Part shown: one piece after another, positions 6,187-34,178 of the stretch
How the letters are laid out: every line of letters starts with the position of its first letter
Numbering within the stretch: the stretch's first letter is position 1
Sequence record: OX090892
Origin: Escherichia phage vB_Eco_Titus
Reading direction: 5' to 3' (one strand)
Length of the DNA: 40,010 nt
Notes under the pieces: model-generated
The model's database searches: none
The model's input: only the letters and a program-made list of their open reading frames with translations
Told to the model about the DNA's origin: nothing
Program-made: the position numbers and the translations under genes

Positions 6187-6638
6187 AGACTAAATTTAAG
6201 AAACGTCCTGAGACTACCAAGATTGTAGTCCACTGTTCGGCTACCCGTGAGGACAAAGACTTTGGTGTGCGTGACATCCGCCTGTGGCATAAAGCTAAAG
6301 GTTGGCTGGATGTAGGCTACCACTACGTTATCAAGCGTGATGGTACTATCGAAGAAGGTCGTCCTGATGATGTAATCGGTGCAGGTGCAGAGGGTCACAA
6401 CACTGACTCAATCCACATCTGTCTGGTTGGTGGTCTGGACAAGGAGGGCAATACACTCGAAGGCTTCCACAATGCGTTCACTGACGCTCAGGAGGTGTCT
6501 CTGTTCCACCTGATTGCTGCAATGGAGGAGAAGTATCCTACCGTTCGCGTAGTGTGTGGACACCGCGACCTGCCTCGTGTAGCCAAAGCGTGTCCTTGCT
6601 TCGATGTCGTTAAGTGGCTGGAAGAAGTGGTAGTCTAA
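6183..6638 (+). CDS. 3.5: N-acetylmuramoyl-L-alanine amidase / lysozyme (T7 gene 3.5 homologue)
   Basis: 151 aa; VHCSAT...GVR.IR.WH...GWLDVGYH..IKRDGT.E.GR, H.....CPCFD match T7 lysozyme. Confidence 0.95.
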   Translation: MKTKFKKRPETTKIVVHCSATREDKDFGVRDIRLWHKAKGWLDVGYHYVIKRDGTIEEGRPDDVIGAGAEGHNTDSIHICLVGGLDKEGNTLEGFHNAFTDAQEVSLFHLIAAMEEKYPTVRVVCGHRDLPRVAKACPCFDVVKWLEEVVV

Positions 6639-6645
6639 GTTACAT

Positions 6646-6679
6646 ACTCAAGGTCATCCGTAATGGGTGGCCTTTATGA
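6646..6679 (+). ncRNA. RNase III processing-site hairpin
   Basis: ACTCAAGGTCATCCGTAATGGGTGGCCTTTATGA. Confidence 0.5.
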
Positions 6680-6682
6680 ATG

Positions 6683-6706
6683 TAATTAACACCCACTATT
6701 GGTATT
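6683..6706 (+). promoter_or_regulatory. Phage RNAP promoter (TAATTAACACCCACTATTGGTATT), +1 G at 6701
   Basis: Promoter motif family. Confidence 0.6.
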
Positions 6707-26600: not shown

Positions 26601-27950
26601 TTGGTGACTGCAATTCGTGGTCTGCAAGATTGGTCGTTCCTGTCTAACTCTGCGCAGATGTGGGTGAACAACCTAACTGAAGTATCAGGGTGGGCAACTA
26701 ACCGGATGATGTTTGTGGCTCGTAATGGTGTCAAAGGTCTGAACCAACTGTTGAACCCAGAAACGAAGTTCTCTAAGGCTGACCTGAAGGACTTTGCTGA
26801 TGGTCTGTTCGGCTATGACCTGAACACTTCGTTGTTACCTTCCTACCGGAACATCAAAGACCAACTGATTAAGACAGGTGCTAGCGAACGTGCTGCTTCA
26901 ATCGCTGCTGGTATTCGTACAAGTGGTGCATTGGCTGCAAGTCATAAGTACAACATCTACACTAAGCTGTTGAACAAGACTACTGAAGGTCTGGTCAATA
27001 TGGCACGTAGTGGTGTACTGAGTGACATCACACACGAAGCATTCGGTGGTGTGCGTATCAATAAGGCTATCTTGAGGAATGCCTCAATCACTGAGAAACA
27101 GTATGCAGGTGTCTTGGATATGTTACGTCAGCACATCAAAGTGCAAGACGGTAAGTATGTCCCTGATGTGCAGGCCATTAAGCGTGACGTTAGGTCTAAT
27201 GACCTGTGGCGCTTAGCGGACTACATTGCGTCTGACTCTGTGATGCGAACAAACAAGGTGGGCTTCAACTATGTGGCTAAACCTAATGCCTTTATGAACC
27301 TTGCGTTGCAGTTCAAGTCCTTCATGTTGAAGGGTCTGAATGCTCGCACTGTTCGTATGTGGCATGAGTCATTCCAAGGTAAGTCTATTGACAACGCTAT
27401 GCGAGTTATCGTTGGTGCTGGTATCACTGGTGCTATCTGGGCTGCACAGGCTCACTACCGTTCTATTGGTATTCCACCTGAGCAACGCCAAGAGTACCTT
27501 GAGCGTATGTTAGACCCTAGCATGGTAGCTTATCAGGCATTCTCACGTAGTGCTGAGATGGGTACTGTACTTGGTGGTGTAAACCTCGCGTTGACTCCAT
27601 TCACAGACAGTGACCTGTTCCGTTTAGGTCGTTCTACCGTAGACCCTGTACGGGCTATGAAAGGACGCTCACCTTTACGTGCAGACGTTCTGAATCAACA
27701 AGCTGTCGGTGAACAACTTGGTGACGCTGTGTACAACACAATGCCAGCCTTGAAGTTCATTGGTACTGCTGGTGTCCTTCCGGCTAACGCTGTGCAATGG
27801 GCACTTGCCGACCACGGCTATCAGTCTGACATGCAGGCTCGTACCTTCTTTGAGAACTTAGCGTCTGCTGCTCCTAATGCTCCTGAGATTCAGTGGTTAA
27901 TCGGGATGATGGCACAAGATGCAGGTGCTTCAGGTAAGGGTATGTGGTAA
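23625..27950 (+). CDS. 16: Internal virion protein C with N-terminal lytic transglycosylase domain (T7 gene 16 homologue)
   Basis: 1441 aa; N-terminal SLT-like motif (..GLFQFTKTTWDAM..), position before tail fibre. Confidence 0.85.
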   Translation: MSYSTDTSSTSMYQRLKALSGDTHGLITTAGNELGLPEGQALKVGMIESGLKADASSGVAKGLFQFTKTTWDAMKQKYGAEYGIDPTASRTDPVANTILGVAYLKENATNYQSTFGKDPELVDLYMGHFLGQSGRNQFLKAMEQNPNAPAYAVVGKRSVANNKDVFFKKDGTARTLNEVYQMYSNKLSATELEQDMKTDRLKMDIQDELLWKTLGRSQDGSANATLSTGTAPSTPNFDVSLSDSKPQSIADALSSYGLQKPEDTVEKDERSFFDGAWEAAKAEIRLSPIGRDLREKYIQSGAPVEWDSAAAALRESFSGLSQSEMFTGNINPLEPMDITPEMWNTILSNGVDKKWMEYIKMSANPQDLVNRVQMAQEMQRADQARQAAATGGQLVGGIAGAFGDPLTFATGGTSAGGSLMTRLFVAGTEAAAGNAANEFSLSQETRGGVETNIAAAALGGFAGGVALRGLGEAFTNMSAAGRMRARQESIDAGVPDVTARPDVEVPEGKTWVEKPDEAGAVVDELGNTHSATSFGNPKVMEAVEANKGIELGGLNSISYDLLRSESTETRTIAQDLVRSPTGIKGGGSGVTRMTAEDYLGRLEGQDNLIYTQAMKAREKAYEHSMFDLQGGRNAREAMERQVVEAIESGDFSRLTPEMKEYADLLTTNFTEKHYAASNIAALSGNADAPNVLTSTIDPKRYVPAIYEEGKVIDAKMRFDPEGKYEGLYNEIQANWTAQWKNNHNGVRERMKALFDEDNSKFAEDLRAKLTKDKELDVVPEGKQKSARMEKQEGIQAKISKAEELRQKNAVKLQKARKPETRAKYEGLVQKYDKQLSELKTELEMTKPMDEDKLLEIYAQRYIERKSYGIAKNGEFTHSSSLEDVDLSDSLVGIENNNFTQERNIFDMAYESIAKDGEPFSLNDLRHFDMMNAMSMYNKRMNGDIAIHASTGKTTKDLKDAIVALPEGRDRTNLDQLTRLITGRRRAEDPASALVTAIRGLQDWSFLSNSAQMWVNNLTEVSGWATNRMMFVARNGVKGLNQLLNPETKFSKADLKDFADGLFGYDLNTSLLPSYRNIKDQLIKTGASERAASIAAGIRTSGALAASHKYNIYTKLLNKTTEGLVNMARSGVLSDITHEAFGGVRINKAILRNASITEKQYAGVLDMLRQHIKVQDGKYVPDVQAIKRDVRSNDLWRLADYIASDSVMRTNKVGFNYVAKPNAFMNLALQFKSFMLKGLNARTVRMWHESFQGKSIDNAMRVIVGAGITGAIWAAQAHYRSIGIPPEQRQEYLERMLDPSMVAYQAFSRSAEMGTVLGGVNLALTPFTDSDLFRLGRSTVDPVRAMKGRSPLRADVLNQQAVGEQLGDAVYNTMPALKFIGTAGVLPANAVQWALADHGYQSDMQARTFFENLASAAPNAPEIQWLIGMMAQDAGASGKGMW

Positions 27951-27971
27951 TTAACACCCACTATTGGAGAG
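27948..27971 (+). promoter_or_regulatory. Phage RNAP promoter (TAATTAACACCCACTATTGGAGAG), +1 G at 27966, with leader hairpin
   Basis: Overlaps gp16 stop; leader GAGGGAG..CTCCCT can pair; phi17 equivalent. Confidence 0.6.
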
Positions 27972-28026
27972 GGAGGCTAAATGTCTCCCTACTTAATGTC
28001 TATAACAATTAGTGTAAGGAGGATAA

Positions 28027-29895
28027 ATGGCTAACGCTACTCCATTCTATACACGGTCGCCTAAGACTATTGTCGTTTATCCGATTAATGGTCAGACAGA
28101 GTTCACTATTCCCTTTGAGTTTCTAGCTCGTAAGTTCGTAGTGGTAACACTGTTGGGTGTAGACCGTTTACCGTTGGTACTCAATACCGACTATCGTTTT
28201 GTGTCTGTGAATCGTATTCAGTTACTCTCTCCGGTTCCCGCTGGGTATCCTAACATTGAGTTACGCCGATTGACTTCCGCTACTGACCGACTGGTCGATT
28301 TTCACGATGGGTCTATCCTACGTGCTTACGACTTAAACTTGGCTCAGATTCAGACCATGCACGTTGCTGAAGAAGCTCGTGACCTGACTGCGGACAACAT
28401 TGGTGTAAACGATAACGGCGACCTTGATGCTCGTAACCGTAAGATTGTCAACTTGGCTAACGGTACAGAGAACAACGATGCTGTGAACTTGGGTCAGTTA
28501 CGTCAGTTCGATACATCCACTGCTAACAATGCTGACCGTGCTGAGGCTGCAAAGAATCGTGCTGTACAAGCTGAGACTAACACTGCGCGTGACTCTGCGT
28601 CTGCCGCTGTGAATGCTACCAAGGCTGTAGCGTCTGCTGGTACTGCTGTGCAGGCTGCAAGTGATGCCAATCGGTCTTACGATAAGATTGTCCCTTTGGA
28701 ACAGTCCACTGTGGCTAACGCTCAGGTAGCAACTCAACAGGCTCAACGTTCTCAGAGCGAAGCAGACCGAGCTAAGAGTGAGGCTGACAAGCTGGCTAAC
28801 ATTAACCAGTTCGCACAGACCATTGAACGTGTAGACGGTACTGCTCCGGTATTTAAAAGCAACCTAGCGATTGGAGGTAATTCCGCATCTACTCATGCTT
28901 ACATTAGTATTAACTCAAAGGCATCCGATGAAAGTGGTGTAACACGAAAAGGGTTTATTGGGGTTGCTGGTGAAAACGAGAAACACATTACCGTTGGTTC
29001 AGATGTTAGTGCTGTTCGTTTACAAACACCTAGTGGTTCTGTTCAAGTTGGTGGTAATCTAGTACATTCTGCTGCCAACAGACTATTGGTATCTGCACAG
29101 GATGATAATGACTGCTATATCGACATTGCTGCCAGAAACTCTGAGAATAAGTTTCGTCGTATTTATTCAGGTGGCGGTAGGTTAGCAGTGACAGAGAACG
29201 TGTCAACAACTGGTGAGTGGTTGCGAGATATTATCAGCACATACCAATACCCTAGTGACCCAAGACGCGGTATCTTTGAGGTTGGTAACGCCAATATGCG
29301 CTCAAAGGCGTGGGGTTCCACTTGGGCGGATAGTTTAACAACTTGGAACTCTGGTAACTTTGTTGATGCAAACTATGCTGCTGGGTCTGCAATTTCTGCT
29401 GTGACCCTTAGTGTCCCTTCTCGACCTAGTGTAGGGTGGCCGACTAACATTGGATTTGGTACTTTGATGGACGGTCGTGCCGGTCTTATGAATCCTTACA
29501 TCTGGGCGGCTGGTATGGATAATGCAGAGTTACGAGGTTGGGAGTTCCAATCTGACGGTCGTATTCGCTCATTTAACCAGTTAGGTAGCTTAGGTATTGT
29601 GTCGTTTATGGGAGACTGGGCACCTCGTAATGCCCCTATTGGTGCTGCTGGGTACAGTGGAGGACTTCAGATTCGTTACGGTGTTGTCTATGCTGCACAG
29701 GCAGAGGCATGGAACTGGCACGCTTACTCTGAACCTTTCCCTACTGCTACCCTCTCTGTTGCATTGACACAGCGTAACCCGCCACGTTTCGACAATACTT
29801 GGAACCCGAAGATTGGCTCTGTGAACAACACAGGTTTTAACTTTGCTGGTGGTGGTCAGGAACGTGACTTCTATTACATCGCTGTAGGTTACTAA
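28027..29895 (+). CDS. 17: Tail fibre protein (T7 gene 17 homologue)
   Basis: 622 aa; N-terminal ~150 aa (FE.LARKFVVVTL.GVDR, IELRR.TS.TDRLVDF.DGSILRAYDLN.AQIQTMHVAEEARDLT.D.IGVN, RNRKIVNLAN) closely matches T7 gp17; C-terminal receptor-binding part is unrelated. Confidence 0.9.
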   Translation: MANATPFYTRSPKTIVVYPINGQTEFTIPFEFLARKFVVVTLLGVDRLPLVLNTDYRFVSVNRIQLLSPVPAGYPNIELRRLTSATDRLVDFHDGSILRAYDLNLAQIQTMHVAEEARDLTADNIGVNDNGDLDARNRKIVNLANGTENNDAVNLGQLRQFDTSTANNADRAEAAKNRAVQAETNTARDSASAAVNATKAVASAGTAVQAASDANRSYDKIVPLEQSTVANAQVATQQAQRSQSEADRAKSEADKLANINQFAQTIERVDGTAPVFKSNLAIGGNSASTHAYISINSKASDESGVTRKGFIGVAGENEKHITVGSDVSAVRLQTPSGSVQVGGNLVHSAANRLLVSAQDDNDCYIDIAARNSENKFRRIYSGGGRLAVTENVSTTGEWLRDIISTYQYPSDPRRGIFEVGNANMRSKAWGSTWADSLTTWNSGNFVDANYAAGSAISAVTLSVPSRPSVGWPTNIGFGTLMDGRAGLMNPYIWAAGMDNAELRGWEFQSDGRIRSFNQLGSLGIVSFMGDWAPRNAPIGAAGYSGGLQIRYGVVYAAQAEAWNWHAYSEPFPTATLSVALTQRNPPRFDNTWNPKIGSVNNTGFNFAGGGQERDFYYIAVGY

Positions 29896-29904
29896 GGAGG
29901 AACA

Positions 29905-30249
29905 ATGTACTTAAACTATTCACAAGCTATGCAGGCTTTGTTGGATGGTTATGATGTCATTCGGGAGAGCACAGGACGTGTTCTCTCTGTTGATAAGACC
30001 AACAACAATATGTTTGCCTACTGGCCTGAACTTGGTGAAGGTCTGCGGGATACACCAATGAGTCAAGAAGACTTAGAGGCAACCGACTGGAAAATCTATG
30101 ACCATAATGGTAACGATGCTCCTGAGGACTCCTCTCAGTTCGACATCAAGGTTCCTGTGGACACCAAGCAACAACAAATTGATGAACTAACTGATAAGTT
30201 AGCAAATCTTGAACAGAAACTCATGGAGGTGCTAAATGCCAAGTCCTAA
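29905..30249 (+). CDS. Hypothetical protein (114 aa), possibly DUF2829-like with C-terminal coiled coil
   Basis: TAAGGAGG RBS; pattern Y.QAMQALLDGYDVIR ... AYWPE ... SQEDLEATDWKIY resembles, from memory, the DUF2829 fold (family of Thoeris anti-defence Tad2); not verifiable here. Confidence 0.6.
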   Translation: MYLNYSQAMQALLDGYDVIRESTGRVLSVDKTNNNMFAYWPELGEGLRDTPMSQEDLEATDWKIYDHNGNDAPEDSSQFDIKVPVDTKQQQIDELTDKLANLEQKLMEVLNAKS

Positions 30250-31321
30250 AGCTCAAGACACTGTTGAGTTCGGATGGTCTGGTACTGATGGTTATATTCG
30301 TAATGGAGGTAAGTACAACCTCCTTACGTCTAAGCCTAAGATGACCTTTGCGTATGACACAGTGATGTACTCAACTGACCCTGCCGTAGAGGATGTTCGG
30401 ACAGTTGGACTGCAAGTGTTCCCACTTCAGCCTAACGAAATGTCTGAACTGAATGCCTACGCTGTGGCTCACTCAATCAATGACCCGTGGAATCCGGCAG
30501 ACCCTGCTGACCCTGTTGGTAAACCTGAGCATCCTGTCACTAACATGATTTACTCGTTTGACACTGCGTCTGGCCGATTGGTTCCAGTCAATGTGTATGC
30601 CCAAGATGGTGACTTCTGGGTAGGTGACCAAGCGTCAACCAATGAGAAACGACTGGCTGTGTTACGTCAGGTTGGTAGTGGGTTTACTGCTGCCTTGGTT
30701 CACATTACCGATGCTGGTCATGTTCAGGTAACTCGAACAGATAATGCAGGTAATATGGTGTCTCTGGACATTGGAGATACAGATATTGGCATCACCACGA
30801 GTGCTGGCCGTAAGCGGTTTGTTACCGAGGATGAACTGCCTCCTCCGCCTCCACCTCCTGCTGCACCTGTTGTCCAGTCTATTGACTTGGTAGATACCGT
30901 GAAACTTGCAGGTGCAAACTACGTGTCTAACACTGCTGTGCTAACTCAAACGTTGATGCAGGAGAATGGTACTGGCGACTACGTTGTGAAGCATCGCCTT
31001 GTCAGCTACGGCACGTTCAACTTCCCAGCTACATCATCAAACACTAAGTCAACCACATTGTCTTTGTCTGGGATGTTCTCTGGCAATCAATATGTGTTCT
31101 GTGACGAGATGACAATCAGTGGTTGGACTGTATCTGGTGGTTCTAACCCAACACAGCACAGTTATCGTATTGACCAGACCAAGCGACAGACAAACCAAAT
31201 TGTTGTGCAAGCAAATGGTACGACTAACGGTGCTCTGACTGTCGCTGCCACTATTGTGATTGAGTTTAATCTGCCTAACCAAGACTACGGCTTAGGTGTC
31301 CCATTCCCTGAATTTGCGTAA
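30236..31321 (+). CDS. Hypothetical two-domain protein (361 aa) with poly-proline linker
   Basis: GGAGGTG RBS, start overlaps upstream stop; internal PPPPPPPAAP linker; Ser/Thr/Gly-rich beta-type C-terminal domain; no homology recognised. Confidence 0.65.
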   Translation: MPSPKAQDTVEFGWSGTDGYIRNGGKYNLLTSKPKMTFAYDTVMYSTDPAVEDVRTVGLQVFPLQPNEMSELNAYAVAHSINDPWNPADPADPVGKPEHPVTNMIYSFDTASGRLVPVNVYAQDGDFWVGDQASTNEKRLAVLRQVGSGFTAALVHITDAGHVQVTRTDNAGNMVSLDIGDTDIGITTSAGRKRFVTEDELPPPPPPPAAPVVQSIDLVDTVKLAGANYVSNTAVLTQTLMQENGTGDYVVKHRLVSYGTFNFPATSSNTKSTTLSLSGMFSGNQYVFCDEMTISGWTVSGGSNPTQHSYRIDQTKRQTNQIVVQANGTTNGALTVAATIVIEFNLPNQDYGLGVPFPEFA

Positions 31322-31332
31322 GGAGGTAAATC

Positions 31333-31473
31333 GTGAAGGTTAAAAAGCGTATTGTTGCCGCTGTGGTTCTGGCATCCCTGATTGTTCTGGGTGCTATCTT
31401 TGAAACCGACCTGACCAAGATGGCTGACGCTCTGGTGTCCGTCTCTTGCTCTATCGTTGAGTGTACACAATGA
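31333..31473 (+). CDS. Small single-pass membrane protein (46 aa), GTG start
   Basis: TAAGGAGGT 5 nt upstream of GTG; MKVKKRIVAAVVLASLIVLGAIFE... has one TM helix; stop overlaps holin ATG; not in ORF track. Confidence 0.4.
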   Translation: MKVKKRIVAAVVLASLIVLGAIFETDLTKMADALVSVSCSIVECTQ

Positions 31474-31679
31474 GTCTTGAACTTAACTTTGGAGATGCTG
31501 TAATCCGCTCTGCCCCTGTTGGTGGGGCGGTTGCAACAGACTTAGTAGCAAGGTTCATGGGTCTAACACTTCACGAGTGGTTCTATGTAGCGGCCATAGG
31601 ATACACTTGCATTCAAGGGTGGGCAGTAATCTATAAGACCCTCAAGAAGTACAAGGAGGATAATGTAAATGACACCTAA
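31470..31679 (+). CDS. 17.5: Holin (T7 gene 17.5 homologue)
   Basis: ATG at 31470 (track start 31461 is GTG); APVGGAVATDLVARFMGLTLHEWFYVAAIGYT matches remembered T7 gp17.5 ..LNEWFYVAAIAYT. Confidence 0.8.
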   Translation: MSLELNFGDAVIRSAPVGGAVATDLVARFMGLTLHEWFYVAAIGYTCIQGWAVIYKTLKKYKEDNVNDT

Positions 31680-31914
31680 AGAGTTTGAGCTATTACTTCA
31701 GGAACTAGACTACGAAGCTGCAAAGCTGATGTTACAAGACCTGAAGAACGACGAGAAGCGTAACCCTCAGTTGTTTAACGCTGTGGTTCGCATGTTGGAA
31801 CGCCACAAGCATACAATTGCAAAGGTTGTTCCTGATGAAAGCATTCTGACCAGTCTTGCGTCTGAACTACCAGACCTGACTGAAGATGAACAATATGGAG
31901 GTATCTTACAATGA
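31669..31914 (+). CDS. 18: Terminase small subunit (T7 gene 18 homologue)
   Basis: 81 aa; position between holin and terminase large subunit; size similar to T7 gp18 (89 aa). Confidence 0.7.
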   Translation: MTPKEFELLLQELDYEAAKLMLQDLKNDEKRNPQLFNAVVRMLERHKHTIAKVVPDESILTSLASELPDLTEDEQYGGILQ

Positions 31915-32054
31915 ACCGTATCGTAACTTGGGTTCTGTTGGTCTGTGTGTGGACTGCTGTTCTGCTGAGTCTCAGTGGTTGCACCATTATGATTGACAGT
32001 CCAAACTCACAACCAATGGTTGAATGTGGTGACTTGTTAGGTATCACCCTGTAA
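31911..32054 (+). CDS. Small lipoprotein (47 aa), possible minimal outer-membrane spanin or exclusion lipoprotein
   Basis: ATG overlapping terS stop (ATGA), GGAGGT 8 nt upstream; signal peptide MNRIVTWVLLVCVWTAVLLSLSG with lipobox LSGC; mature part ~24 aa; not in ORF track. Confidence 0.45.
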   Translation: MNRIVTWVLLVCVWTAVLLSLSGCTIMIDSPNSQPMVECGDLLGITL

Positions 32055-32062
32055 GTTATATA

Positions 32063-32097
32063 CTCAAGGTCATTCGCGTAGAGTGGCCTTTATGAAT
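32063..32097 (+). ncRNA. RNase III processing-site hairpin (R18.5-like)
   Basis: TACTCAAGGTCATTCGCGTAGAGTGGCCTTTATGA. Confidence 0.5.
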
Positions 32098-32124
32098 ATA
32101 ACTAGCAACTAAGGAGGTTAAATT

Positions 32125-32370
32125 ATGACCGAAAGTGATAACGCTACGCAAAATCTGAGTAGAAGTCCTTATGGATTATGGTCAGAAATTGAAGGATTGC
32201 GTAGTCTGGCAGACACTTTGATAGGTGGAGAGATGCCTATGGAGGTGTACAACGCTCTGACTCCTGAGCAAAAGAAGATTACCCTTAACGTAACCAAGGC
32301 GTGTTCACAATGTGCTACTGCCTTAGAGAAGTTTCAAGAGGAGGTACTAAATGTCGGCTGCCCAAAGTAA
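32125..32370 (+). CDS. Hypothetical soluble protein (81 aa)
   Basis: AAGGAGGT RBS; no TM segment; occupies the T7 gene 18.5 position but does not resemble an i-spanin. Confidence 0.5.
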
Positions 32371-34123
32371 CAAAGACAAACTCATTCTAGCTCGCCTGAA
32401 GGCTGACTTTGTGGCGTTCCTCTTTGTCCTGTGGAAAGCGTTGAACCTTCCTAAGCCTACTCGGTGTCAAATCGACATGGCTAGAAAGCTCGCTGCTGGC
32501 TCTGAGAGACGTTTTATCCTTCAGGCATTTCGTGGTATTGGTAAGTCCTTTATCACCTGTGCGTTCGTTGTATGGAAGCTCTGGAACAATCCTCAGTTGA
32601 AGTTCATGATTGTGTCTGCTTCAAAGGAACGTGCTGACGCTAACTCCATCTTTATCAAGCGTATCATTGACCTGTTACCGTTCTTGCATGAGCTGAAACC
32701 TAAGCCTAACCAACGTGACTCTGTAATCAGCTTTGATGTTGGTCTAGCGAAACCTGACCACTCTCCTTCAGTTAAGTCTGTTGGTATCACTGGTCAGTTG
32801 ACTGGTAGCCGTGCTGACATCCTGATTGCGGACGACGTTGAGGTTCCTAACAACAGTTCCACACAGGCTGCTCGTGACCGCCTAGGTGAGCTTGTAAAGG
32901 AGTTTGACGCTATCTTGAAGCCTGAGGGTACTATCATCTACCTTGGTACTCCACAATGCGAAATGACGCTGTACAGAGAGCTTGAGAACCGTGGTTACAC
33001 TACTACCATCTGGCCTGCTCGTTATCCTAAAGACCGCAAAGACCTTGAGTCGTACGGCACACGCTTAGCTCCTATGCTTCTGGAAGACCTTGAGGAAAAC
33101 CCTGAGGCCATGTGGTGGACACCTACTGACCCTGTACGCTTCGATGATGAAGACCTGCGGGAACGTGAGTTGTCATATGGTAAGGCTGGCTTTGCGTTAC
33201 AGTTCATGTTGAACCCTAACCTGAGTGATGCCGAGAAGTATCCACTCAAGTGTCGTGACTTCATTGTGGCGGCTGTAGGTGATGACTTTGCGCCTTTGAC
33301 CTACCAATGGCTACCTAACCACGAGAACCTAGCTGGGAACGTCCCTGCGGTGGGTTTGAAGGGAGACACATACCACTACTACCACGTAGCAGATAAGCGC
33401 ACTGCGGCCTTCTCAGGCAAGATTCTGGCTATTGACCCTAGTGGTCGTGGTAAGGATGAAACAGGGTATGCTGTCTTGTACTTCCTCAATGGCTACATCT
33501 ATGTGATGGCTATGGGTGGCTTCCGAGGTGGTTACGATGATGAAACCCTTGAGAAGCTAGCTAAGGTTGCCAAGCGATGGAAAGTCAATGAGGTTCTGGT
33601 GGAAGGTAACTTTGGTGACGGTATGTACCTCAAAGTGTTCTCTCCGGTACTGGCTCGTATTCATCCTTGTACGTTGACTGAGACTAAGAGTAAAGGTCAG
33701 AAGGAACAACGTATTGCTGATACCATCGAACCTGTCTTAGGTGCTCACCGTATGGTTATCACTGAGGATGCAATTCGTCACGACTATCAGACTGCTCGTA
33801 ATATTGATGGTCAGCATGACATTAAGTATTGCTGCATGTATCAACTTACACGTCTGACTCGTGAACGCGGCGCATTGGCTCACGATGACCGTCTGGACGC
33901 ATTGGCAATCGGGGTGGCATATTTCCTTGAGTCAATCGAGAAAGACGCTCAGAAAGGCGCTGAGGAGCTTACAGAGGAATGGTTGGAAGACCAACTCAAT
34001 GCTGAACGCATCAGTGACCAACTGAGTGACTACATTGTGCATCAAGGCGATGTGGAAATCCGAGTAGGTTACCAAAATGAGGACGCATATTGGGTCACTA
34101 ACCTAGTTGGGTTTGACCGGTGA
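32351..34123 (+). CDS. 19: Terminase large subunit (T7 gene 19 homologue)
   Basis: 590 aa; Walker A-like region (FRGIGKSF), [10 protein letters not shown], nuclease domain; size matches T7 gp19 (586 aa). Confidence 0.95.
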
Positions 34124-34178
34124 TATGTTAACAAAGATGGTTAAATGTTAACGAATTGAGTAGATTTTTGACCATTTT

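Follow-up and report, generated by a model that had tools for sequence, protein, structure and literature searches.

Three late genes in an insertion hot-spot between the tail-fibre and holin genes of the T7-like Escherichia phage vB_Eco_Titus: a predicted Tad2-fold protein, a probable auxiliary fibre and a candidate lysis peptide

The window analysed here, a stretch of 40,010 nucleotides (nt) from Escherichia phage vB_Eco_Titus (sequence record OX090892), carries three plus-strand open reading frames (ORFs) of 114, 361 and 46 amino acids (aa) between a T7-type tail-fibre gene (PF03906, 3e-47) and a T7-family holin gene (PF10746, 8e-11). Comparison with related phages shows that this gap between gene 17 and the holin gene is an insertion hot-spot and not a functional module, and the explanation that we favour, with moderate confidence, is that the hot-spot holds three functionally unrelated late genes encoding a Tad2-fold protein, an auxiliary fibre and a lysis peptide. 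The DNA of the window is 100% identical to that of Escherichia phages vB_Eco_Mak (OX001577.1; Mak hereafter) and vB_Eco_Bam (OW991346.2; Bam hereafter) of the Studiervirinae (Autographiviridae); Mak, Bam and vB_Eco_Titus form a tentative genus with kinship to the Aeromonas T7-Ah-like phages and to Vibrio Chatterjeevirus (PMC10974468).

The gap between gene 17 and the holin gene

What follows the fibre gene varies among the related genomes. Mak and the metagenomic relative L010 carry the Tad2-like gene, the gene of the 361-aa protein family (the 361 family) and the 46-aa gene before the holin gene; L006 and L007, with backbones 98-99% identical to Mak, have no Tad2-like gene and carry a 355-aa member of the 361 family, the 46-aa gene and then the holin gene; L008 and L009 carry a member of 358 or 257 aa followed by the holin gene; and L011 and L012 carry the Tad2-like gene followed by the holin gene. 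Aeromonas phage T7-Ah and the Vibrio phages N4/ICP3 have a further order, in which the holin gene comes first and is followed by a 361-family homologue, gp18, a 46/47-aa peptide gene and a lipoprotein gene. On a distant backbone (gp18 46% identical), L009 encodes a 361-family protein 76-82% identical to that of Mak. In L011 and L012, which come from two independent samples, the missing gene has left a deletion scar (L011:1400-1500 and L012:3214-3314), where the 361-family gene retains only its first 37 nt, joined at a microhomology of 7 nt (GAGTTCG) to its final codons and the start of the holin gene, leaving a 13-codon remnant ORF (MPSPKAQDTVEFV). These gene orders and the scar together indicate that each gene is individually dispensable and individually mobile. 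The original prediction, made from the letters of the DNA alone, had treated the three genes as one module, which does not fit relatives that carry the Tad2-like gene by itself, a 361-family gene without it (L006-L009) or the 46-aa gene elsewhere (T7-Ah and N4); the comparison it had proposed, of whether the insertion is variable among related genomes, shows that it is. For annotation, the lesson is that adjacency and translational coupling are here no sign of a functional module.

The three ORFs are real genes and not chance reading frames. Their homologues are under purifying selection: the ratio of nonsynonymous to synonymous substitution (dN/dS) is 0.03-0.17 in the 361 family and 0.20 over the DUF2829 domain of two 101-aa homologues of the 114-aa protein, the latter value marking the Tad2-like gene as a selected protein-coding gene. 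Each ORF is preceded by a Shine-Dalgarno sequence (AGGAGG, GGAGGT or AGGAGGT) 5-6 nt upstream of its start, and the reading of three ORFs with ribosome-binding sites of their own was confirmed, as were the motifs first quoted for their products (Y.QAMQALLDGYDVIR, AYWPE, SQEDLEATDWKIY and PPPPPPPAAP). The tight coupling ascribed to all of them held at two junctions, as overlaps occur only between the 114-aa and 361-aa genes (14 nt) and between the 46-aa and holin genes (ATGA at 31470), and failed at the other two, where gaps of 9 nt (fibre gene to 114-aa gene) and 11 nt (361-aa gene to 46-aa gene) are present. The ORFs correspond to MAK_039-041 of the Mak record, in which two carry the label hypothetical protein; the Bam record (OW991346.2) annotates the 361-aa gene only, the 114-aa and 46-aa genes being unannotated despite DNA identical to Mak.

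To our knowledge T7 itself has nothing between gene 17 and gene 17.5, and to that extent the original prediction was sound. The statement does not extend to all T7 relatives, as phages of the KP32 group, unlike T7, encode a second receptor-binding protein at this position (PMC6872550). A phage RNA-polymerase promoter belonging to a 16-copy repeat family (consensus AATTAACACCCACTATTGGAGA) lies upstream of gene 17 at 27942-27970 on the plus strand, and the next copy of the motif is found only at 34173; with no copy from 27970 to 34173, the fibre gene, the three ORFs, the holin gene, gp18 and the large terminase gene are placed downstream of one late promoter. Base composition and scans for sigma-70 promoters and terminators revealed neither a separate transcription unit nor a signal of recently acquired foreign DNA.

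The 114-aa protein and the Tad2/DUF2829 family

The 114-aa protein (MAK_039; 29905-30249, plus strand, ATG start) is predicted, from profile searches and structural modelling, to be a minimal member of the Tad2/DUF2829 family in both fold and descent. Its sole Pfam match is PF11195 (Tad2-like; E=0.0022, 18.9 bits, profile positions 2-72 of 73), for which the gathering cut-off is 25 bits. Homology is supported by transitivity, because a syntenic 101-aa homologue (P0008, at L010:5709-6014, found via the contexts of homologues of the neighbouring gene) clears that cut-off alone (30.0 bits, E=7.8e-7, profile positions 1-73); aligned end to end, P0008 and the 114-aa protein are 30% identical (E=6e-9), and both have the C-terminal helix and the ending MEVLNAKS. 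When a profile of the three known members was compared with PDB sequences, the top six matches were Tad2 entries (from SPO1 gp34.65, SptTad2, Myroides Tad2/ModTad2 and HgmTad2/AcrIIA7), each of marginal E (0.02-0.13), with the N-terminal helix and the C-terminal D-x-W strand aligned. An AlphaFold2 (AF2) model, built from the three non-canonical sequences only and with a mean predicted local distance difference test score (pLDDT) of 74, has a helix at residues 5-13, strands at 17-20, 25-30 and 35-39, a helix at 54-58 and a strand at 62-65, after which a disordered linker leads into a long helix at 85-113. The top 21 Foldseek matches of this model in the PDB are all Tad2 (best match 8sme_B, probability 1.0, target-normalised template modelling (TM) score 0.67, root-mean-square deviation 2.4 Å), and those in BFVD are Tad2-like domain proteins from many phages, some of them 65-75 aa long. 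The predicted domain (residues 1-65, from the model and alignment) corresponds to 29905-30099 and the C-terminal amphipathic helix (residues 85-113) to 30157-30243, both on the plus strand.

Against the assignment, the 114-aa protein itself stays below the PF11195 gathering score. Single-sequence searches with it found only itself (in a word-indexed protein database, with phmmer against the PDB, and with tblastn against phages, also with the domain alone at E<=10), and scans of IMG/VR with both family alignments found no relatives. A DUF2829/Tad2 protein with a C-terminal helix had been suggested in the original prediction, and at the level of fold the suggestion proved right, with the structural comparison agreeing and the profile score of the protein itself falling short.

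In other small phages, canonical DUF2829 genes adjoin large tail-fibre or tail-spike genes, namely in Pectobacterium phage Koot_B1 (L014:2501-2776), Klebsiella phage VLCpiS11a (L015:2492-2740) and Escherichia coli phage IME_EC2 (L016:2486-2770); this neighbourhood may reflect a shared insertion hot-spot or coincidence.

The predicted ligand pocket departs from that of characterised members. SPO1 Tad2 grips the cyclic ADP-ribose isomer 1''-3' gcADPR by van der Waals contacts of W25 and W73 and polar contacts of N26 and D79, together with T78, S76 and others; the HgmTad2 mutants W21A/N22A and S90A/T92A/D93A bind gcADPR markedly less; and the site is reported to be kept in all but ~1% of Tad2 homologues. 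Helix alpha2 forms the dimer interface of SPO1 Tad2, and the central insertion forms the cyclic-dinucleotide pocket of HgmTad2. We read the equivalent residues from an alignment of the 114-aa protein with SPO1 Tad2 and three canonical phage DUF2829 proteins. Where the canonical sequence is R-x-G-W-N-G-K, the 114-aa protein has R20-E-S-T23-G24, with no Trp, no Asn and a four-residue deletion; counted without gaps from the conserved G and R, T23-G24 fall at SPO1 W25/N26, and the next G-K is deleted. T50 takes the position of W73 and E55 that of T78, and S53 (= S76), D56 (= D79) and D61-W62 are kept. W40, which sits in a low-confidence loop of the model (residues 40-53), could conceivably replace W73. 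The 101-aa relatives P0008 and P0009 keep the first Trp (as W-D) and are missing W73. The insertion of ~26 residues that includes helix alpha2 is absent from all three family members, and in all three a linker of ~20 residues leads to an added helix whose hydrophobic positions recur every 3-4 residues (I92, L95, L99, L102, L106 and V109 in the 114-aa protein).

With the Trp and Asn residues that contact gcADPR missing, canonical anti-Thoeris sponge activity, which the original prediction had implied, is doubtful and unproven, and any ligand of the protein is probably not gcADPR bound in the canonical manner. The C-terminal zipper probably replaces the oligomer contacts that were lost with the central insertion. 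Because the Tad2 family is functionally plastic, with members that inhibit Thoeris I, II and IV, CBASS and Pycsar (PMC12393519), a retargeted sponge is plausible by analogy. Two points pull the other way: a protein without equivalents of W25, N26 and W73 could be a non-binding relic or have a role other than that of a sponge, and the gene lies in a late (class III) unit, where anti-defence genes are not usually found and where its expression would coincide with the production of structural proteins. A minimal Tad2 core devoid of the canonical pocket residues and yet under purifying selection is a useful test case at a time when Tad2 sponges are being mapped for their range of ligands, as it would show either the limit to which the fold can be stripped with signal binding kept or a second, non-sponge role of DUF2829.

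The 361-aa modular protein and the 46-aa peptide

The 361-aa protein (MAK_040; 30236-31321, plus strand, ATG start) is built of modules, all on the plus strand: an N-module (residues 1-87, EFGWSGTDGY...DPWNP; 30236-30496), a variable middle domain delimited by alignment (residues 88-201; 30497-30838), the linker PPPPPPPAAP (residues 202-211; 30839-30868) and a putative C-terminal beta-sandwich module, the C-module (residues 212-361; 30869-31318), which ends in LPNQDYGLGVPFPEF. It is most likely an auxiliary receptor-binding fibre with a docking domain not previously described, and we infer that the N-module attaches it to the virion. The N-module is invariant within the clade, the middle domain is absent from P0005 and replaced in P0006 and P0007, and the proline linker differs in length among the homologues; such insertions, deletions and truncations at the level of whole domains are typical of receptor-binding proteins. 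As a family the N-module is PHROG 12315, of unknown function (phrog_12315, 2e-12), and it is ~42% identical to VN4_42 of Vibrio phage N4 and to related Aeromonas proteins (E=7e-14). When 1.84 billion representative proteins were searched exhaustively with profiles, only 31 relatives of the 361-aa protein emerged. The N-module, ~35-45% identical across 19 distant relatives, is always N-terminal, its carriers being 63-707 aa long and unrelated at their C-termini, and the C-module can be found in proteins that have no N-module. Partners of the N-module in these relatives include an Sf6-type tail-needle knob (PF16532, 1e-25; phrog_1030, 1e-43), a GDSL/SGNH esterase (PF13472, below cut-off), regions with weak tail-fibre PHROG matches and, by inspection, an alanine/serine-rich segment like the shaft segment of Mak gp17. 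Three carriers of the N-module (P0022, P0028 and P0030) have in common a distinct conserved C-terminal motif, LE[AD]AIFMGEQE[VL]F[IV].

Gene context points in the same direction as architecture. Every contig examined is T7-like, with the 361-family gene between the fibre gene and gp18. The C-module, which evolves under strongly purifying selection (dN/dS 0.03-0.07), is 34% identical over 157 residues to P0011 (E=7e-25), including a terminal LPN-DYG-G-PFP motif, and the gene for P0011, on a 52-kb myovirus contig, has a phrog_8147 tail-fibre gene on either side and Baseplate_J and wedge genes upstream. Given these N-module fusions and this C-module context, the fallback offered by the original prediction, that of fibre-associated accessory proteins, suits the 361-aa protein.

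The 361-aa protein does not follow the tip of the fibre. Mak gp17 (622 aa; 28027-29895, plus strand) has a T7 N-terminal anchor, a YadA-like stalk and a weak Gp53-like C-terminal tip (PF03906, 3.3e-47; PF05662, 5e-07). The fibre tip of L006 is unrelated to that of Mak (20-29% identity), yet the C-modules of the two 361-family proteins are 97% identical, which argues against a tip-specific chaperone or adhesin; with no co-variation with the fibre tip, this role was rejected. The fibres themselves (28027-29895 in the window and L006:4142-5989) are 99% identical at the N-terminus and unrelated in the C-terminal half, with Collar and C1q-like matches in the L006 tip and a weak Gp53-like_C match in that of Mak, a recent swap of receptor-binding tips.

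Several results weigh against an auxiliary fibre. In the Vibrio and Aeromonas relatives the homologue is encoded after the holin gene, a position that would fit a lysis-associated or non-virion role too; a T4gp10-like branching domain was not detected in Mak gp17 by Pfam and sequence-level comparison; the 361-aa protein is not similar in sequence to KP32gp38 (best E=0.8); its AF2 model is too poor to assign a fold (pLDDT 43, rising to 60-78 in the C-module); and profiles of the family and of the N-module (19 sequences) gave chance-level matches only against PDB sequences and Pfam. Homology to the branching region of KP32 gp37 and to gp38 was considered and rejected: Mak gp17 is 53% identical to KP32gp37 over residues 13-158 only, which is the T7 anchor, and the likeness ends there. 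Foldseek matches of the 361-aa model to an R1 pyocin fibre, CBM3b and envelope proteins of white spot syndrome virus (WSSV) were disregarded (E>0.02, low probability). A search of NCBIfam with the family returned nothing, and a literature search found neither proteomics nor genetics for Mak and its relatives nor a paper characterising Mak, Bam, PHROG 12315 or PHROG 4712. If an auxiliary fibre is the right reading, the family points to an undescribed anchor domain of secondary receptor-binding proteins in T7-like phages outside Klebsiella, which is relevant to the prediction of host range and to modular phage engineering.

The 46-aa peptide (MAK_041; 31333-31473, plus strand, GTG start) belongs, judging by homology and synteny, with the lysis cassette, of which it may be a working component, and not with the anti-defence or fibre module in which it had been placed. 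It matches PHROG 4712 (1.5e-06), a family nominally labelled 'holin', which its N4 homologue matches at 7e-23. As first described, it is a single-pass membrane peptide: a single hydrophobic stretch (residues 8-22, Kyte-Doolittle mean 2.88) is followed by ~23 residues, the basic N-terminus predicts an N-in/C-out topology, and the C-terminal motif CxxVECxQ is kept in Mak, T7-Ah and N4. The homologous gene of T7-Ah and N4 stands just after gp18 and is followed by a lipobox ORF (LSGC / LSAC), which is the position of T7 gp18.5/18.7. In Mak the lipobox ORF (47 aa, LSLSGC; 31911-32054, plus strand) stays after gp18 and the peptide gene stands before the holin gene, the pair being split by holin and gp18. 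The 47-aa lipoprotein is a candidate partner, with which the peptide probably acts; both genes are present in Mak, L006, L007 and L010 and both are absent in L008, L009 and L011, a pattern confounded by phylogeny. The two could form a miniature spanin-like pair. Against a spanin of the classical kind, the peptide offers ~23 periplasmic residues where an i-spanin would be expected to have a coiled coil of ~100 aa or more, and no classical i-spanin is visible in the window. Nor does the peptide fit a T7-family class II holin, having no Pfam match and one hydrophobic segment instead of two; the true holin is the product of the next gene, the gp17.5 equivalent (31470-31679, plus strand; PF10746 and record annotation), whose start overlaps the stop of the 46-aa gene.

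Other features of this region lie beyond the gap. In a second clade of relatives, L009 (7211-8774) and also L008 and L011, the small peptide/lipoprotein pair after gp18 is replaced by three genes, whose products are a multi-transmembrane protein of 196 aa (phrog_22163), a signal-peptide protein of 227 aa that ends ...LRLGYHL in the manner of an outer-membrane beta-barrel, and a 67-aa PF21825 Sequestin protein. In the window, an 81-aa ORF without a family match (MAK_045, 32125-32370) overlaps the start of the large terminase gene and is kept in L006, L007 and L010. A conserved 56-nt hairpin element (AAGGTCATTCGCGTAGAGTGGCCTT) that resembles T7 RNase III processing sites is present in three copies (1955-2010, 6636-6691 and 32052-32107), with the 47-aa lipobox ORF and the 81-aa ORF on either side of the third.

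Alternative explanations and known systems

Under the explanation that we favour, three late genes in the gap between fibre and holin, downstream of the gene-17 promoter, would each serve a purpose of their own. The 114-aa protein would combine a 65-residue Tad2-fold core with a leucine-zipper-like helix that stands in for the lost oligomer contacts and, by family, would most likely be a small-molecule sponge against a host immune signal, with a remodelled pocket. The N-module of the 361-aa protein would dock to the virion and its proline linker would present an exchangeable beta-sandwich tip, the protein taking the place of a KP32-type second receptor-binding protein. The 46-aa peptide, N-in/C-out, would work in the lysis cassette with the 47-aa lipoprotein as partner.

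Other explanations draw on the same observations. That the genes form a coherent anti-defence module, with the 114-aa member a working Tad2 that sequesters gcADPR and so blocks type I Thoeris, seems to us quite unlikely. The fold and family assignment on which it builds is solid, two ligand contacts, S76 and D79, have counterparts in S53 and D56, the breadth of systems inhibited by the family (Thoeris I/II/IV, CBASS and Pycsar; PMC12393519) leaves room for it, and the presence or absence of the gene among near-identical phages is usual for anti-defence genes. These points are set against T23-G24 in place of W25-N26 and T50 in place of W73, the marked loss of gcADPR binding in HgmTad2 W21A/N22A, a gcADPR site reported in about 99% of Tad2 homologues, to which the 114-aa protein is an outlier, the deletion of the central insertion that provides the dimer interface and the cyclic-dinucleotide pocket, the placement of the gene in a late transcription unit, and the independent occurrence of the other two genes, with their fibre-like and lysis affinities. 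We consider it very unlikely that the first two genes are a fibre-assembly pair, in which the 114-aa coiled-coil protein would chaperone either the fibre or the 361-aa protein, or the latter would itself be a gp17-specific tip adhesin or chaperone. Position directly downstream of the fibre gene, the 14-nt overlap suggestive of translational coupling, the modelled coiled-coil tail and the DUF2829 genes that abut fibre or spike genes in other podoviruses all accord with such a pair, but each gene is found without the other, the L006 fibre tip is unrelated where the 361-family C-terminal domain is 97% identical, and the domains joined to the N-module in relatives, a knob or an esterase, are of kinds that bind or modify receptors and are not chaperones.

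A non-virion role for the 361-aa protein, as a soluble or cell-surface late protein that acts, for example, in the destruction of receptors or debris at lysis or in superinfection exclusion, we judge unlikely. The homologue encoded between holin and gp18 in Vibrio N4-like and Aeromonas T7-Ah-like phages, inside the lysis/packaging block, agrees with such a role, as does the GDSL esterase domain of one relative, which could act on released polysaccharide; the gene is moreover dispensable in the L011/L012 lineage, and comparisons with gp17 and KP32 sequences did not find an attachment site. The sequence nevertheless contains no signal peptide or transmembrane segment, virion-anchored receptor-binding proteins are as a rule built with a conserved N-module and exchangeable tips, the C-module occurs among tail-fibre genes in a myovirus contig, and the Sf6-type knob (PF16532) is a virion tip domain.

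A more novel reading joins two proposals, and as a whole we would call it somewhat unlikely: the 114-aa protein would found a distinct subclass of the Tad2 fold with a 65-residue core that has shed the insertion and both ligand-stacking tryptophans, oligomerised by its zipper and retargeted, and the 361-aa protein would have, in its 87-residue N-module, an undescribed virion-docking domain. The new target of the subclass would be a non-gcADPR immune signal or a non-nucleotide partner, and its late production would coincide with that of the structural proteins by which signalling defences are triggered. If this is true, the N-module lets T7-like phages of Vibrio, Aeromonas and Escherichia plug in a second receptor-binding protein with no need of a T4gp10-type branch.

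Among known systems, the Tad2 proteins (SPO1 gp34.65, HgmTad2/AcrIIA7, SptTad2 and ModTad2) resemble the 114-aa protein in being small phage-encoded accessory proteins with an N-terminal helix, an antiparallel sheet, a short helix and a D-x-W terminal strand, and G15, R20, S53, D56, D61 and W62 of the 114-aa protein align with SPO1 G17, R22, S76, D79, D84 and W85. The 114-aa protein differs in its domain of 65 residues compared with about 85, without the central insertion and helix alpha2, in the added linker of ~20 residues and C-terminal helix of 29 residues, which canonical Tad2 lacks, and in the location of its gene in the late structural operon of a T7-like phage. Two-component spanins (T7 gp18.5/18.7 and lambda Rz/Rz1) likewise consist of a small N-in/C-out membrane protein and a small lipobox lipoprotein; in T7-Ah and N4 the two genes of the Mak-type pair are adjacent at the gp18.5/18.7 position, and both products have periplasmic cysteines, whereas their periplasmic parts, at ~23 residues each, are too short for classical bridging of the envelope.

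The homologues of the 361-aa protein in PHROG 12315 (Vibrio N4 VN4_42, VP3/VP4/ICP3 and Aeromonas T7-Ah) have different middle and C-terminal domains and genes placed after the holin gene instead of before it, as in Mak, but are homologous over the N-terminal 81-87 residues and likewise come from T7-like phages. In relation to the branched systems of KP32-group Przondovirus (KP32gp38) and G7C/K1-5, the 361 family differs in having as its conserved N-terminal part an 87-residue domain and not a peptide of 7-29 residues, and the 361-aa protein differs from KP32gp38 in its lack of a depolymerase beta-helix and in the position of the gene after the holin gene in some relatives. The likenesses are those of location and design: the gene follows a T7-type fibre gene and precedes the holin gene, the order being gp37, gp38 and then holin in KP32 (PMC6872550) and fibre, (114 aa), 361 aa, (46 aa) and holin in Mak, and KP32gp38, G7C and the 361 family alike combine a conserved N-terminus with exchangeable C-termini, truncated derivatives and a dispensable gene.

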